The notes beneath the pieces were generated by a model that made no database searches, was not told the DNA's origin, and saw only the letters and a program-made list of their open reading frames with translations. This document shows positions 43,173 through 49,509 of a DNA stretch of 64,000 nucleotides, piece by piece (within the stretch, counting starts at the first letter, position 1; each line of letters begins with the position of its first letter). Made by a program: the position numbers and the translations under genes. The stretch comes from Patescibacteria group bacterium. GTDB lineage: Bacteria > Patescibacteriota > Patescibacteriia > Magasanikbacterales > GWA2-37-8. Where the stretch lies: contig SCQK01000007.1 of assembly GCA_004321885.1 (NCBI GenBank), positions 96,001 to 160,000 of the forward strand, read 5' to 3'.

Positions 43173-44204
43173 TTAAAACTGTTTTATGAATCGCAAATCT
43201 CCGCTCTCCAAATGGCGAACGTCTTCAATGCCGTATTTAAGCATGACCAAACGGGTAAGGCCGAAACCAAACGCGAACCCGGAATAAATTTTTGGGTCAA
43301 CACCGCCTTCTCTGAGCACATTAGGGTGAATCATTCCTCCAGGCATCACTTCAAGCCATCCGGTATTTTTGCACACTCGACATCCTTTTCCGTGACACAA
43401 AAAACAAGTCAATTCTCCGCGCACGCCCGGTTCTACGAATGGATAAAATTTCGGCATTAAGCGCAGCTCGGTACCGACGCCAAATAAATGATCCGCGACT
43501 GCCTGCATCACGCCTTTCATGTGAGCAAAGCTGATATTTTTATCTATTACTATTCCTTCAAGTTGATAAAATGTATGCTCATGCCTTGGGTCAGTAGCTT
43601 CATTCCGATAACATTTGCCCGGAACAATCGCCCGCAGGGGCACCCCGTATTTTTGCATGGCCCGCACCTGCACCGAAGAAGTATGCGTGCGCAAAACCCA
43701 ATCCGAATGCCCTTTGATGTAAAAAGTGTCCTGCATGTCGCGCGCCGGATGCTCGGGTGGAATATTAACGGCCGTAAAATTGTAATAATCGCTTTCAAGT
43801 TCCGGCCCGTCCAAAACCATAAAACCCATGGAGGTAAACAAATCTTCCAAGTCCTTTTGCACCAAAGTATTGGGATGAAAATGCCCGCGTTCCTCCACAG
43901 GCAAAGCCGGCTGGGTGACATCCACCCGCTCTTTTTCCAAACTGTTCTTCCACTCCCCTGTCATCAGTTCGGATTTTTTCGCCGCCAGCGCCTTTTCTAT
44001 CGCCCCCTTCACCTCGTTCGCCAATTGTCCGGCGCTTTTTTTCTCTTCATCGCTCAAATTTTTCAACCCCTTCAAAAGCAAAGTCAGCTCGCCGCTCTTG
44101 CGGCCCAGCAATTTTATTTCTAACTGTTCCAATTCGCCCGCGCTTTTGGTCGCCCCGATCTCGCGCAAGGCCGATTCCTTTAATTGAACAAGTTTGTCTA
44201 TCAT
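43173..44204 (-). CDS. pheS: Phenylalanyl-tRNA synthetase alpha subunit
   Basis: Class II aaRS motifs (FRNE, GLERL-like); start trimmed to MIDKLVQLKE (44204), because the longer ORF to 44261 overlaps the upstream gene. Confidence 0.85.
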   Translation of the reverse strand: MIDKLVQLKESALREIGATKSAGELEQLEIKLLGRKSGELTLLLKGLKNLSDEEKKSAGQLANEVKGAIEKALAAKKSELMTGEWKNSLEKERVDVTQPALPVEERGHFHPNTLVQKDLEDLFTSMGFMVLDGPELESDYYNFTAVNIPPEHPARDMQDTFYIKGHSDWVLRTHTSSVQVRAMQKYGVPLRAIVPGKCYRNEATDPRHEHTFYQLEGIVIDKNISFAHMKGVMQAVADHLFGVGTELRLMPKFYPFVEPGVRGELTCFLCHGKGCRVCKNTGWLEVMPGGMIHPNVLREGGVDPKIYSGFAFGFGLTRLVMLKYGIEDVRHLESGDLRFIKQF

Positions 44205-44227
44205 ACTGAAATAAAAAAATTTATAAT

Positions 44228-44752
44228 TTATTTCCACCACCGCGGCAAATGTTCCGAACATGCCTTAAAAAGCTCTTCTGATACAAGGTTGCGGTGATTA
44301 CGCATAATAAATGGCAAATTTCTGACATGCGCGCCCGGATAAATGCCAACTATCTTGGCGTCTTTATCGGCGATCGTGATGACGGATTTTTTCATGTCCG
44401 CTCCAGCGTCGCGAAGACCATAATCAAATTCTTCTGTTACTATATTATATGCCGAAATCCAGCCACCGAGACAATCAATAAATTTACCGCCTAAGCCGCA
44501 ACCGTCTTCAATGCACATTGGTAAATCGTTTATCACATACACATAAAAATACGATGGGGTCACGATATCAAAAGGCGGGTGCCGGACAGTATGAGTCCCG
44601 GCTCCTTCCGCCGCCTTCATGCCAAGAGCTATGGTCTCGTACTGTTTGACACCAAAAGGATACTTTTGCCAGACAAAAATGCCGACACCGACAAAAATAG
44701 TCGCGAGAAGCGCCAAAATTATTTTTTTTCTATGGCGCAATACAAAACTCAT
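44228..44752 (-). CDS. Hypothetical membrane-anchored (N-in, periplasmic domain) protein; possible immunity partner of the upstream gene
   Basis: TM helix ILALLATIFVGVGIFVW and about 140 aa of extracytoplasmic domain with four Cys; separated by only 2 nt from the upstream gene. Confidence 0.45.
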   Translation of the reverse strand: MSFVLRHRKKIILALLATIFVGVGIFVWQKYPFGVKQYETIALGMKAAEGAGTHTVRHPPFDIVTPSYFYVYVINDLPMCIEDGCGLGGKFIDCLGGWISAYNIVTEEFDYGLRDAGADMKKSVITIADKDAKIVGIYPGAHVRNLPFIMRNHRNLVSEELFKACSEHLPRWWK

Positions 44753-44754
44753 AC

Positions 44755-45732
44755 TTAATCCACTATTTCCAGCACGCCGACGCTCATAAAATCGCCCTTG
44801 CGCGCTTTGATTAATGAATCATAAATTTCCATCCAGCGTTTAACTTCAATAATAGTCATGCAGCCGCGCGAATGCCCACCTGCGTGGAGATATCTTTCGC
44901 CGCTATGACCAATCTTAAACCAAGTCATGGCCCGTTTTGATTCATCCATATAACTCTCACCGCCCTTATGTGCGTAATCCGGAATTTCAATATCATATAA
45001 CCCTTTTTCCCAAGGCATATCCGGATAATCAGTTGCTTGATATTTTTTATCTTTCAAGAAGAAAACTTTTTGGGAGATGGAATACTTGGCGCGAATCATC
45101 GGCTTGTGATTAACGCCGGAAATAAACCAGGAGGAACCGTTGTCGCGCAATTTGATGGATGCCATTTTACCGCGATACGGACCTTCTAAGATAATAAAAT
45201 ACTCTCTTTCGTTAGATACTCGTTCCGGTTTTAGTTTTAAAAAAGCGGGCACTGGTCTTACTAACTTACTATCTTCAATCCTCACAATTAAAAACCCTTG
45301 CGAACCGTCTATATCAGGCACATAACGCACCGCATCAGAGACAACTGCTTCCAAGATTATTTCAAAAAGCGCGGTTTTTGAACCCCATGATTTGCCCCAA
45401 ATTGAACGGGTTTCTTTTATTTGAACCTCAAAAGGAAACTTTTGGGGTTTATTGTCGGAGGTATCAATTTTTATAGTGCTTTGCGCCCTGCCGACGTCGT
45501 TAAATAAAATATCTTTTTCAATAACGGTAACCGTAACCTCGGTTTTAAATTGCTGTTGATCGGTTTCAATTTTCCTCATTTCGCTGTCTATTTTCTCTGT
45601 CGTGCCGGCTTTAATTCTTTTATCCACGCGCAAAAACTTTCCCAGTATTTCAATTTCTATACGGATATCGTCGCCGATAGAATCGCCGCTGTATTTTATT
45701 TTTGTCAGTTTTAGCTGAACGGATTTAAGCAT
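44755..45732 (-). CDS. Hypothetical protein with C-terminal L,D-transpeptidase-like (YkuD/DUF2778, Tlde1-like) motif and no signal peptide
   Basis: C-terminal IGHSGERYLHAGGHSRGCMTI resembles the H-x-G...S-x-G-C catalytic signature of L,D-transpeptidase-fold proteins; the N-terminal 200 aa are of unknown function and carry no secretion signal. Confidence 0.45.
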   Translation of the reverse strand: MLKSVQLKLTKIKYSGDSIGDDIRIEIEILGKFLRVDKRIKAGTTEKIDSEMRKIETDQQQFKTEVTVTVIEKDILFNDVGRAQSTIKIDTSDNKPQKFPFEVQIKETRSIWGKSWGSKTALFEIILEAVVSDAVRYVPDIDGSQGFLIVRIEDSKLVRPVPAFLKLKPERVSNEREYFIILEGPYRGKMASIKLRDNGSSWFISGVNHKPMIRAKYSISQKVFFLKDKKYQATDYPDMPWEKGLYDIEIPDYAHKGGESYMDESKRAMTWFKIGHSGERYLHAGGHSRGCMTIIEVKRWMEIYDSLIKARKGDFMSVGVLEIVD

Positions 45733-46929: not shown

Positions 46930-47496
46930 ATGATGATACTTTACATCATTTTGCCGGTAGTGGCAATAGTGGCGGTGTGGCTGATTGCCACGTATAACGG
47001 GCTTATCCGCTCCAAAAACCGCGTGGATGAGGCATTCTCTGACATAGACGTGCAACTTAAACGCCGCTATGATTTGATTCCGAATCTGGTGGAAACCGTG
47101 AAGGGCTACATGACGCACGAGCAGAATACGCTGGTGAAATTGACCGAAGCGCGCGCCGCGGCCATGTCCGCGCATGATAATAAAAACGCTTCGCTGGCCG
47201 ACAAGGAAAAAGCCGAGAACATGTTAAGCGAAACATTAAAAAGTTTGTTCGCGGTGACGGAAAATTATCCGGACCTCAAGGCCAGCCAGAACTTCTTGCA
47301 GTTGCAGGATGAATTGAGCGATACGGAAAACAAAATTCAGGCCTCACGCCGCTTTTACAACGGCAACGTGCGCGACTTCAACACCAAGATTCAGGTGTTC
47401 CCCACCAATATGGTGGCCGGTTGGTTGAAATTCGTGAAATACGAATTTTTCCAAGCCGCCGAGGGTGAAAGACAAAACGTACAGGTGAAATTTTAA
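46930..47496 (+). CDS. lemA: LemA family protein
   Basis: N-terminal TM helix plus the conserved LemA core (YNGLIRSKNRVDEAFSDIDVQLKRRYDLIPNLVETVKGY). Confidence 0.8.
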   Translation: MMILYIILPVVAIVAVWLIATYNGLIRSKNRVDEAFSDIDVQLKRRYDLIPNLVETVKGYMTHEQNTLVKLTEARAAAMSAHDNKNASLADKEKAENMLSETLKSLFAVTENYPDLKASQNFLQLQDELSDTENKIQASRRFYNGNVRDFNTKIQVFPTNMVAGWLKFVKYEFFQAAEGERQNVQVKF

Positions 47497-47502
47497 TGGC
47501 GT

Positions 47503-48393
47503 ATGTACTCCCAAATAGATTCCAACAAGCGCAAAAGCGTCTTCTTGATGATGATATTTATCGCCTTCATCATTGTTTTGGGTTATGTCTTTGATAAGGT
47601 ATGGGGCGCGCCGGGCGCGTATAGCGGTGTGTTTTTCGCTATCTTTATTTCGCTCCTCATGACCATGATTTCATATTTTAGCGGCGACAAAATCGCGCTC
47701 CTCACCACCGGCGCCAAACCGATAATAAAAGAAGAAAACCGCTACCTGTACAACATGGTGGAAAATCTCTGCATCACATCGGGTATGCCCGTGCCGAAAA
47801 TATATATCATTGAAGACGAGGCAATAAACGCTTTCGCCACCGGGCGCAAACCGGAGTTGTCTTCCATCGCTGTAACTACCGGGGCAATAAAAAAATTGGC
47901 CAACGAGGAGCTGGAAGGGGTGCTGGCGCACGAATTGTCGCATATAAAAAATTACGACATCCGCTTCATGATGCTGGTGGCGGTGATGGTGGGCTCCATA
48001 GCTATTCTCTCGGATATTTTTATGCGCGCGCGCTGGTTTGGCGGCGGACGGCGTTCTGATTCAGACCGCGGAGGACAAGCCGGCTCTATTTTGCTTATTG
48101 CCGGCGTGATTCTGGCCATTCTCTCGCCCTTAATCGCCGAACTGATCAAGCTGTCTATTTCACGCAAACGCGAATATCTGGCCGACGCCTCGGGTTCTCT
48201 GCTCACCCGCTACCCCGAAGGTCTAGCGCGGGCTCTGGAAAAAATAGCGTCCGAAAACCGGCCCATGGCGCACGCCTCCAAGGCCACGGCTCACCTTTTT
48301 ATCGCCAATCCTTTCAGCGGCCGCAAAGTGGCCGCCTTGTTCTCCACCCATCCGCCGATTGAGGAAAGAATAAAAATCCTGCGGGGAATGTAA
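47503..48393 (+). CDS. htpX: Zinc metalloprotease HtpX (peptidase M48)
   Basis: HELSHIKNYD (HExxH) plus a downstream Glu (EYLADASG) and four TM segments; the classic lemA-htpX pairing. Confidence 0.85.
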   Translation: MYSQIDSNKRKSVFLMMIFIAFIIVLGYVFDKVWGAPGAYSGVFFAIFISLLMTMISYFSGDKIALLTTGAKPIIKEENRYLYNMVENLCITSGMPVPKIYIIEDEAINAFATGRKPELSSIAVTTGAIKKLANEELEGVLAHELSHIKNYDIRFMMLVAVMVGSIAILSDIFMRARWFGGGRRSDSDRGGQAGSILLIAGVILAILSPLIAELIKLSISRKREYLADASGSLLTRYPEGLARALEKIASENRPMAHASKATAHLFIANPFSGRKVAALFSTHPPIEERIKILRGM

Positions 48394-48436: not shown

Positions 48437-48943
48437 ATGCTTTCCATCAAACTCCATCGCCAAAAACCCGGACTGTGCGGACCGGCTTGCCTGAAAATGG
48501 CGCTGGAATTTTTTTCGGCCAAAGGCCGACCCGCCTTTGGCGGGGGCAAAAGCGAAGCCGAATTGACGCGACTGGCCAAAGGCACAAAAAACAAAGGCAC
48601 AAACGCGGCTGATTTACTGGGCGTGGCGCGCTCACTCGGGTTTGATGGATTTATTAAGGACTCCGCGGAAATAAAAGACATAAAAAAATTTGTTGTAAAC
48701 AACAAAATCCCCGTTATAGTGGATTGGTTTTCTCGCGACGACGGCCATTACAGCGTGGTCGTTGACGTTGATAACAAAAATATTTTTCTGGCCGACCCGG
48801 AAACGGCGAAAATAAAAAAGATTGATTTAAAAACTTTCAAACGCGTCTGGTTTGATTTCCCGGGCGATTTTCTAAAAACCAAAAACGAAATTATTATCCG
48901 AAGGATGATTGTCATTTGGCCGACCAATTTCCTCTCCCCTTGA
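48437..48943 (+). CDS. Papain-like peptidase C39-like domain protein
   Basis: Catalytic Cys in GLCGPACLKMAL and a His in DGHYSVVVDV, typical of the C39 / peptidase_C39_2 fold; no ABC transporter partner nearby. Confidence 0.5.
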   Translation: MLSIKLHRQKPGLCGPACLKMALEFFSAKGRPAFGGGKSEAELTRLAKGTKNKGTNAADLLGVARSLGFDGFIKDSAEIKDIKKFVVNNKIPVIVDWFSRDDGHYSVVVDVDNKNIFLADPETAKIKKIDLKTFKRVWFDFPGDFLKTKNEIIIRRMIVIWPTNFLSP

Positions 48944-49074: not shown

Positions 49075-49509
49075 ATGCCAACAAAATTTTACAACAAACC
49101 GATTCTTAAAAAAATCAGGAGCAAACTTCGTAATGAGATGACAAGGGGAGAAAAAATTTTGTGGTCAAAATTGCGAAGAAAAAATTTAGAATTCAAATTC
49201 CGCAGACAATACGGAATAGGAAATTACGTTCTTGATTTTTACTGTGTAGAATTGAAACTGGCGATTGAAATTGACGGGCTTTCGCACCACAGCGAGAAAG
49301 CGTTTGAAGAGGATTGCAAACGACAAAAATATTTGGAATCGTTGGGAATAACTGTAATGAGATACAACAGCGAAGATGTTTTTAAAAAATTGGAGCAGGT
49401 GGCCGAGCAAATTTATCAGACGTGTCAGAACTTAAACGCGAAATTGCCTACCCCCACCTCGCCTCCCCCTTATAAAGGGGGAGAAAGTCGGCGATTTCTC
49501 TCCCCTTGA
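49075..49509 (+). CDS. DUF559 / Vsr-like endonuclease domain protein
   Basis: LRRKNLEFKFRRQYGIGNYVLDFYCVELKLAIEIDGLSHH...D..R...LESLGITVMRYNSEDV is a classic DUF559 (PD-(D/E)xK, Vsr-like) signature; the C-terminal tail is translated from a GGGGAGGG hairpin. Confidence 0.7.
   Translation: MPTKFYNKPILKKIRSKLRNEMTRGEKILWSKLRRKNLEFKFRRQYGIGNYVLDFYCVELKLAIEIDGLSHHSEKAFEEDCKRQKYLESLGITVMRYNSEDVFKKLEQVAEQIYQTCQNLNAKLPTPTSPPPYKGGESRRFLSP

Follow-up and report, generated by a model that had tools for sequence, protein, structure and literature searches.

A conserved Patescibacteria gene pair encoding a signal-less L,D-peptidase-fold protein with a C2-like N-domain and a membrane-anchored thioredoxin-fold protein: a candidate effector/immunity cassette

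Two adjacent genes of a Patescibacteria genome, here called A and B, encode a candidate cell-wall effector and its candidate immunity protein. They lie within a 64,000-nucleotide stretch of DNA (positions 96,001 to 160,000 of contig SCQK01000007.1, assembly GCA_004321885.1; hereafter the window, whose numbering is used unless a locus name precedes the coordinates) and correspond as exact sequences to EPN28_02105 (A) and EPN28_02100 (B) of a metagenome-assembled genome (MAG) designated 'Patescibacteria group bacterium'. B is downstream of A, the junction TAA-GT-ATG leaving a gap of 2 nt; an M50/RseP gene is the upstream neighbour of A, its stop codon 15 nt before the ATG of A, and the string RseP-A-B-PheS-PheT is co-directional and tightly packed (gaps of 2-15 nt), with DnaE further downstream. 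Scans of the locus for promoters and terminators scored at the level of shuffled sequence. Searches at E <= 1e-3 retrieved 381 homologs of A, nearly all from Patescibacteria and 58-69% identical in the best 120 of 381, and 209 homologs of B; the best matches of A and of B are 53-79% identical. Judged by sequence conservation, A and B are real, conserved genes. Their component features are collected in Table 1, with the families of partner proteins considered below.

Table 1. Features of the A/B locus (window coordinates) and families of exported proteins encoded next to the catalytic module. aa, amino acids; TM, transmembrane; CPR, candidate phyla radiation (Patescibacteria); ORF, open reading frame.
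Feature	Positions	Strand	Basis
Gene A: 325-aa signal-less protein, C2-like N-domain and L,D-peptidase-fold catalytic module; candidate effector	44755..45732	-	ORF
A residues 1-135: eight-stranded C2-type β-sandwich (predicted)	45328..45732	-	
A residues 136-325 and stop: catalytic module, β-rich subdomain and YkuD/Tlde1-like core (predicted)	44755..45327	-	
A residues 276-293: catalytic motif HSGERYLHAGGHSRGCMT	44854..44907	-	invariance in alignment A3; coordinates verified
His283 of A, predicted dyad	44884-44886	-	
Cys291 of A, predicted dyad	44860-44862	-	
Gene B: 174-aa membrane-anchored extracytoplasmic protein; candidate immunity protein	44228..44752	-	ORF, homologs, adjacency to A
B residues 11-29: signal-anchor TM helix, preceded by RHRKK	44666..44722	-	hydropathy, charge count
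B residues 60-174: degenerate thioredoxin-like fold	44231..44575	-	
Partner family I: B-like			
Partner family II: helical (L066, L071, L074, L075)			
Partner family III: Riflebacteria			
Partner family IV: anchored CPR, 212-216 aa; 12 loci			
Partner family V: anchored CPR, 240-249 aa			

The initial annotation, made from the sequence alone, described A as a signal-less protein with a 200-residue N-terminal domain of unknown function, ending with a catalytic motif. The first of these statements holds at the length given. The highest 19-residue Kyte-Doolittle mean in A (1.25) belongs to an internal window and the N-terminus is not hydrophobic; no in-frame start lies upstream, and the mere 15 nt between the RseP stop and the ATG, together with the starting residue shared by homologs, exclude another start, which rules out a cryptic signal peptide. 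The domain boundaries require revision. In an AlphaFold2 model built on 30 homologs (predicted local distance difference test score, 90.2; predicted template modelling score, 0.76), eight β-strands within residues 3-133 are followed by a β-rich region and a C-terminal part containing a helix at residues 297-308. The supposed 200-residue domain is replaced by a 135-residue C2-like domain, and residues ~136-325 form one catalytic module, residues ~134-325 being the unit that occurs alone or fused to other domains in other phyla. Foldseek comparison of A returned almost exclusively C2 domains (probability ~1.0), L,D-transpeptidase (Ldt) matches not appearing within the top 50, and the modelled N-domain has the eight-stranded β-sandwich of the C2 fold; the Pfam C2 hidden Markov model (HMM) does not match A. 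Conserved acidic and polar residues of this domain (S18, G20, E72, D74, N78, D79, R109, S110) sit, by the strand boundaries assigned with DSSP, in the β1-β2, β5-β6 and β7-β8 loops. The best structural matches of the catalytic module are L,D-carboxypeptidases and Ldts, with 8-15% sequence identity in the structural alignments, and its predicted three-dimensional fold is that of YkuD and the Ldts, which bears out the fold assignment in the initial annotation. Sequence and profile searches of Protein Data Bank chains (with A and with alignments A1 and A3) gave nothing relevant.

Residues 274-294 of A comprise IGHSGERYLHAGGHSRGCMTI, and a further 31 residues follow, so that the motif is near the C-terminus of A and not at its end. 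To define the catalytic positions we used an alignment (A3) of 30 diverse modules with a mean identity of 36%, taken from an exhaustive profile search that yielded 676 representatives (clusters at 50% identity; E <= 1e-3). Invariant in A3 are G244, H255, Y261, W271, F272, H283, G285, G290, C291, T293, W300 and R311; position 288 is conserved as Ser or Thr, and the family motif is [YF]-[LIF]-H-x-G-x-x-[ST]-x-G-C-x-T. The His...Cys signature proposed for A therefore stands as to motif and predicted fold, with the qualification that of its two histidines H283 is invariant and H276 is not; His283 rather than His276 was for this reason chosen as the predicted partner of Cys291, accompanied by Ser288 and Gly290. 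A thus carries the Cys/His, [S/T]-x-G-C motif of the YkuD fold with a spacing shorter than the canonical one. The canonical Ldt motif is HXX14-17[S/T]HGC, and that of Tlde1a, an effector of a type VI secretion system (T6SS), is H121-x6-S128-x-G130-C131 (PMC9638812).

No meaningful match to A or B emerged from HMM searches of Pfam, NCBIfam, PADLOC and PHROGs, a match of GH97_C (E 0.017) from the direct searches being attributable to chance. The proposed kinship of A with YkuD and DUF2778 fared unevenly at this level. YkuD (PF03734) does not match A even at E <= 10, nor any of the 30 diverse relatives at E <= 1, and NCBIfam has no such match for A; Tlde1_dom/DUF2778 (PF10908) likewise fails to match A itself, but gives matches below its gathering score (30.1 bits) in 14 of the 30 relatives when these are scanned singly, the best at E 1.1e-6. 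Further PF10908 matches reach 15.0 bits in L070 and 13.3 bits in one Flavobacteria-type member, and where the matched span is shown it covers the catalytic motif (profile positions 87-114 of 120). DUF5675 is matched by four of the 30, and one short member from Paenibacillus (P0394) bears the UniRef name 'YkuD domain-containing protein'. We describe the family of A as a sister, so far unannotated, of Tlde1/DUF2778 within the YkuD fold, and as a member of neither Pfam family.

Protein B begins with MSFVLRHRKK, followed by a 19-residue hydrophobic helix (maximal 19-residue Kyte-Doolittle mean, 2.38) that in the AlphaFold2 model spans residues 3-30. Because four Lys/Arg residues precede the helix and two follow it, B is predicted to adopt an N-in/C-out topology, and its thioredoxin-like ectodomain is therefore located where the cell wall is. 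Structural matches of the ectodomain are solely to the thioredoxin superfamily, and the model has the thioredoxin fold; the matches of DLW-39 and, weakly, phrog_16988 (E 0.01) cover the TM helix. The annotated features of B, namely its position 2 nt downstream, its TM anchor, its length of 174 aa and its four cysteines, were all borne out. The cysteines are C80, C85, C94 and C165, invariant in the close family. The C80-x4-C85 pair occupies the β1/α1 junction, the position of CxxC in thioredoxins, and is kept in every CPR B-like protein, even at ~30% identity; the second pair, C94/C165, is restricted to the close subfamily. Among the five B-like proteins from outside the CPR, those of L081, L078 and L070 lack both cysteines of the first pair, that of L076 has the first only and that of L062 has both. 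There is no CxxC active site in B, no match to Pfam thioredoxin, redoxin or AhpC-TSA even at E <= 10, and none to NCBIfam thioredoxin or redoxin families. In B, a degenerate thioredoxin fold is exposed on the membrane's outer face, probably stabilised by disulfides and not serving as a canonical oxidoreductase; the latter role is unlikely for a protein with Cx4C in place of CxxC and with cysteines gone from most non-CPR relatives.

Full-length A occurs in about 60 Patescibacteria species representatives of GTDB at 31-68% identity, with two copies in some MAGs, and full-length relatives at 31-33% identity were found outside the CPR in Saganbacteria (L061) and Oligoflexia (L062). Most of the other non-CPR matches cover only residues ~134-325 and come from Thiomargarita, Deltaproteobacteria, Cyanobium, Allomuricauda and Flavobacteriales, Blastocatellia, Planctomycetota, Riflebacteria, Leptospirales and Margulisiibacteriota; Firmicutes also carry members. 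In other phyla the module is also the C-terminal part of proteins bearing eCIS_core (PF13699, formerly DUF4157), the domain named for extracellular contractile injection systems (eCIS). Two such proteins, of 624 and 648 aa, are encoded at L080 (E 1e-32) and L081 (E 4e-28), the L080 locus also containing a second eCIS_core protein, a contractile injection system (CIS) tube protein and an AAA+ ATPase, and the L081 locus, from Leptospirales, a neighbouring eCIS_core paralog in which a peptidoglycan Amidase_2 domain is C-terminal to eCIS_core. The eCIS_core fusion recurs in P0326, P0334 and P0366; other members are fused to Peptidase_C70 (P0317) or Amidase_3 (P0333), and stand-alone short forms also occur. 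The module thus has the distribution of a polymorphic toxin domain, C-terminal after differing N-termini (eCIS_core, Peptidase_C70, none in the stand-alone forms, and the C2-like domain in the CPR). No fusion to PAAR, Rhs, VgrG or MIX, as would mark a T6SS effector, was present in any relative examined.

The N-domain of A has its own second context. It recurs at the extreme N-terminus, without a signal peptide, of a CPR protein (P0328; L084:2070-3857) in which it is followed by SH3_3, an SLT lytic transglycosylase domain, one TM helix and an FG-GAP-like C-terminus; P0354 and the next ORF (L085:8001-9931) share this architecture, interrupted by a gap in the assembly. Positive-inside charges predict an N-in topology for the P0328-type protein, and its C2-SH3-SLT part would therefore lie in the cytoplasm, an odd location for a lytic transglycosylase; this protein may share the export route of A. 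Both halves of A thus associate with wall-cleaving enzymes and toxin-delivery modules, the catalytic module through its eCIS and amidase fusions and the N-domain through its SH3-SLT fusion. A phage or tail-lysin origin was considered and rejected, there being no PHROG matches and only two short-form matches in IMG/VR, one of them beside a serine recombinase. In this last case (L083:4340-6609, on a 69-kb IMG/VR contig) the short-form homolog of 203 aa lies ~1 kb downstream of the serine-recombinase-like gene and has no obvious exported partner.

Elsewhere the module is nearly always followed directly by a small gene whose product has a signal, lipoprotein or signal-anchor N-terminus, and these exported partners represent at least five unrelated families (Table 1), none with a significant Pfam match (a faint match of family V to PdaC, E 0.003, is not relied on). 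The B profile matches the lipoprotein encoded after the Leptospirales eCIS toxin (E 4e-10), the partner in L078 (1e-5) and, more weakly, Flavobacteria partners. B-like partners directly downstream of A in L038, L044, L048, L050 and L055 are longer (295-444 aa) and contain two tandem thioredoxin-like domains. In Riflebacteria (L069:3435-4295), a truncated 96-aa toxin module followed by a second family III partner lies downstream of an intact pair, forming an orphan cassette. The assembly studied here likewise contains, on a different contig, a second B-like protein (P0122; EPN28_03885) that is 75% identical to B; the best 120 of the 381 matches to A include no second A from this assembly, and P0122 may either be an orphaned immunity gene or belong to a second cassette. 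The partners thus have the attributes of immunity genes: they are adjacent, exported, non-homologous between lineages and present as orphan copies.

A census of 46 CPR loci gives this linkage a quantitative form. The downstream partner is the sole neighbour common to more than eight loci, being B-like in 29 of the 46 and of family IV in 12, and A shows no linkage to mur, fts or pbp genes across the set. Conserved housekeeping synteny can be set aside: RseP is upstream of A solely here and in L026, and PheS/PheT were found adjacent to A at no other locus. Between this genome and that of L005, A is 67%, B 61% and PheT 34% identical; between this genome and that of L026, A is 54% and RseP 43% identical. 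These are only two data points, and they suggest either that A and B have spread laterally among the CPR or that they are under very strong constraint. In 8 of the 46 loci, ORFs of 229 aa with the string 'GEYYHIFNRGN' (e.g. L018:7684-8454 and L027:4954-5977), which we take to be IS200/Y1-transposase-like, lie within 4 kb of A, and a pair of genes for proteins of 195 and 159 aa precedes A in seven Falkowbacteria-type loci.

On these grounds we read A and B as a peptidoglycan-targeting effector/immunity cassette of a Patescibacteria bacterium, with a probability of about 0.6. This reading builds on gene structure and topology, on folds and invariant residues, on the distribution of the module and on the linkage of A to its partners, all of them observed, and the toxin/immunity proposal of the initial annotation gains particular support from the occurrence of the module as C-terminal eCIS cargo, the recruitment of partners from unrelated exported families and the standing of the partner as the sole conserved neighbour in the CPR. 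The catalytic chemistry, the peptidoglycan substrate and the inhibition by B are inferred from what is established for characterised enzymes, and the export of A is posited, as follows. The C2-type β-sandwich would serve in targeting or delivery, and the acidic residues conserved at its loop tip may let it bind membrane or envelope. If A works as Tlde1, Csd6 and Pgp2 do, Cys291, once activated by His283, would attack the stem peptide at the bond that follows the L-centre of its third residue and, as in these enzymes and Ldts at large, form an acyl-enzyme, releasing or exchanging D-Ala4 of the tetrapeptide. Such trimming or exchange would deprive the target wall of cross-link donors and acceptors and weaken its cross-linking. 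The ectodomain of B would bind and block any A that reaches the wall of the producer or a sibling. A is assumed to leave the cell, no T6SS or eCIS being seen here.

Several observations weigh against the cassette. Export of A is an assumption because A has no signal and no T6SS, eCIS or other secretion genes lie within the ±7 kb examined around A and B, the range over which the initial annotation's statement to this effect holds. The conservation of A at 58-69%, its constant length across named CPR lineages, its presence mostly as one copy per locus and its housekeeping surroundings fit a core gene better than a toxin engaged in an arms race. It is awkward, and unusual for cognate immunity, that proteins 58-65% identical to this A (L006, L010, L018) are paired with family V partners and not with B. 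PADLOC and PHROGs, finally, offered no support.

A broader reading, which we put forward tentatively as possible, would turn the conservation to account. CPR episymbionts may possess a lineage-specific weapon or host-manipulation system in which the C2-type β-sandwich is a delivery tag for signal-less wall enzymes, these being exported by a route that is neither T6SS nor eCIS to remodel, where the symbiont attaches, the wall of the host bacterium, while a thioredoxin-fold ectoprotein protects the wall of the symbiont. The tagged enzymes would include the Tlde1-like L,D-peptidase (A) and the SLT lytic transglycosylase of the sister proteins, and the strong conservation of A and B would reflect an essential epibiotic role and not an arms race.

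The alternative most to be reckoned with, although we consider it unlikely, is that A is a housekeeping wall enzyme, the bacterium's own L,D-carboxypeptidase or transpeptidase, with B as its membrane partner or regulator. A could be tethered by its C2 domain at the cytoplasmic face of the membrane and act there on lipid-linked precursors or on muropeptides that are imported or recycled, or be exported non-classically for wall maturation. High conservation and a fixed length across CPR lineages are what such an enzyme would show, and its tight, co-directional placement between RseP and PheS/PheT, the recurrence of RseP directly upstream in L026, the lack both of secretion genes nearby and of a signal peptide, and the predicted cytoplasmic location of C2 and SLT in the related C2-SH3-SLT-TM protein are all consistent with it. 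Against this stand the 46 CPR loci, in which there is no conserved neighbour besides the partner and no mur/fts/pbp linkage; the use of the module elsewhere as eCIS cargo and in fusions to lytic amidases; the replacement of the partner by unrelated exported proteins; the orphan cassettes and duplicated copies; and the finding that, between the same genomes, A and B are far more conserved than PheT next to them, which is suggestive of lateral spread. An exported partner, moreover, makes little sense for a cytoplasmic enzyme.

A cassette directed at something other than peptidoglycan stems is less probable still. The Cys291/His283 module would then be a peptidase, amidase or transferase acting, for example, on a protein-wall linkage (as with DpaA) or on a host surface protein or lipid reached via the C2 domain, and B would remain its protector. 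Similarity to characterised enzymes does fall below family thresholds, and the C2 fold in known contexts binds lipid or protein; yet every enzyme with which the module is fused or alternates acts on peptidoglycan (Amidase_2, Amidase_3, SLT), L,D-carboxypeptidases and L,D-transpeptidases head its structural matches, and the partners are extracytoplasmic, where the wall is. Very improbable, lastly, is a TlpA/ResA-like redox helper that keeps the catalytic Cys of exported A reduced or oxidises it to switch A off, since the exclusively thioredoxin-superfamily matches of B and a cysteine pair placed where thioredoxins have CxxC and kept throughout the CPR are outweighed by a spacing that is Cx4C and never CxxC, the loss of both cysteines in three of five non-CPR relatives (a fourth keeping only the first), partners elsewhere that have no thioredoxin similarity, and the lack of any Pfam thioredoxin, redoxin or AhpC-TSA match at E <= 10.

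Other genes near the pair can be described briefly. The PheS ORF as mechanically listed (43173-44261, -) shares 34 nt with the 3' end of B; the gene probably begins instead at an internal Met (MIDKLVQ..., about 44204), and a short intergenic gap would then follow B. The other side of the locus contains LemA, HtpX, C39 peptidase, DUF559 and phosphoglucomutase (PGM) genes. LemA (188 aa) and the HtpX-like M48 peptidase (296 aa) form a pair at 46930-48393 (+), divergent from the RseP-A-B-PheST string, and are followed by a stand-alone Peptidase_C39-like protein of 168 aa (48437-48943, +; E 5e-13) with no ABC transporter adjoining; a similar stand-alone C39 gene, at L085:1658-2269, adjoins a D-Ala-D-Ala ligase. 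A protein of 144 aa related to DUF559 and restriction endonucleases (49075-49509, +; E 2e-31) is encoded in a stretch of low G+C content (0.41), and may have been inserted as a small mobile or restriction-related element.

Patescibacteria account for a large part of bacterial diversity and spend their lives attached to other microbes; to our knowledge, the molecules that they direct at hosts or competitors have hardly been characterised. A bacterial C2-like domain on two different wall-cleaving enzymes provides a handle for finding the CPR delivery route, and the reagents that the pair offers are a catalytic module of 190 residues, its mutants C291A and H283A and the B ectodomain in soluble form. 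Were A a housekeeping enzyme after all, it would represent an L,D-peptidase step at the cytoplasmic face in CPR wall recycling, which would also be new. L,D-peptidases have reportedly been predicted among polymorphic toxins (Zhang et al. 2012).

The cassette can be compared with several known systems. Like TlpA, ResA and DsbE, B is a membrane-anchored extracytoplasmic protein with a thioredoxin-type fold; unlike them it has neither CxxC nor a Pfam thioredoxin or redoxin match, and its genetic partner is a toxin-like enzyme where theirs are cytochrome maturation genes. The N-domain of A resembles eukaryotic-type C2 domains (synaptotagmin, dysferlin, perforin, cPLA2) in the clustering of conserved acidic residues in loops at one tip, but is bacterial, occupies the extreme N-terminus of wall-degrading enzymes and lacks a Pfam C2 match. 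The eCIS_core polymorphic toxins carry the catalytic module of A as C-terminal cargo, followed in L081 by a B-like lipoprotein, whereas A has no eCIS_core domain and no CIS genes nearby, and begins with the C2-like β-sandwich. Csd6 of Helicobacter pylori, Pgp2 of Campylobacter jejuni, LdtMt2 and YkuD differ from A in being secreted housekeeping enzymes with signal peptides or anchors, in matching Pfam YkuD and in having no associated immunity gene; in structural alignments they are 8-15% identical to A.

The closest characterised system is Tlde1a/Tldi1 (Tae5/Tai5; DUF2778, PF10908) of the Salmonella SPI-6 T6SS. Tlde1a, like A, is a small signal-less Cys/His enzyme with an altered L,D-transpeptidase fold and a compact H...S-x-G-C motif, and its gene, like that of A, forms a bicistron with one for an exported protein, which in the Tlde1 system is the immunity protein; the immunity proteins of Tlde1 effectors are highly divergent between subfamilies. 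The two systems differ in motif spacing (H-x4-S-x-G-C in A, H-x6-S-x-G-C in Tlde1a), in gene order (effector then immunity protein in A/B, Tai5 upstream of its effector), in the additional C2-like N-domain and ~100-residue β subdomain of A, in the fold of the immunity protein (thioredoxin-like in B, DUF2195 in the Tlde1 system) and in setting, Tlde1a being delivered by a T6SS and A/B residing in Patescibacteria without one. In the literature searched, DUF2778 is reported only from α-, β- and γ-proteobacteria, and neither Patescibacteria nor eCIS-fused forms are mentioned. The unannotated family described here, with its 676 clusters, would extend the Tlde1/L,D-peptidase toxin clan beyond the proteobacterial T6SS to eCIS cargo, Firmicutes, Bacteroidota, Cyanobacteria and, above all, the CPR, and would add the thioredoxin fold to that clan as a new type of candidate immunity protein.

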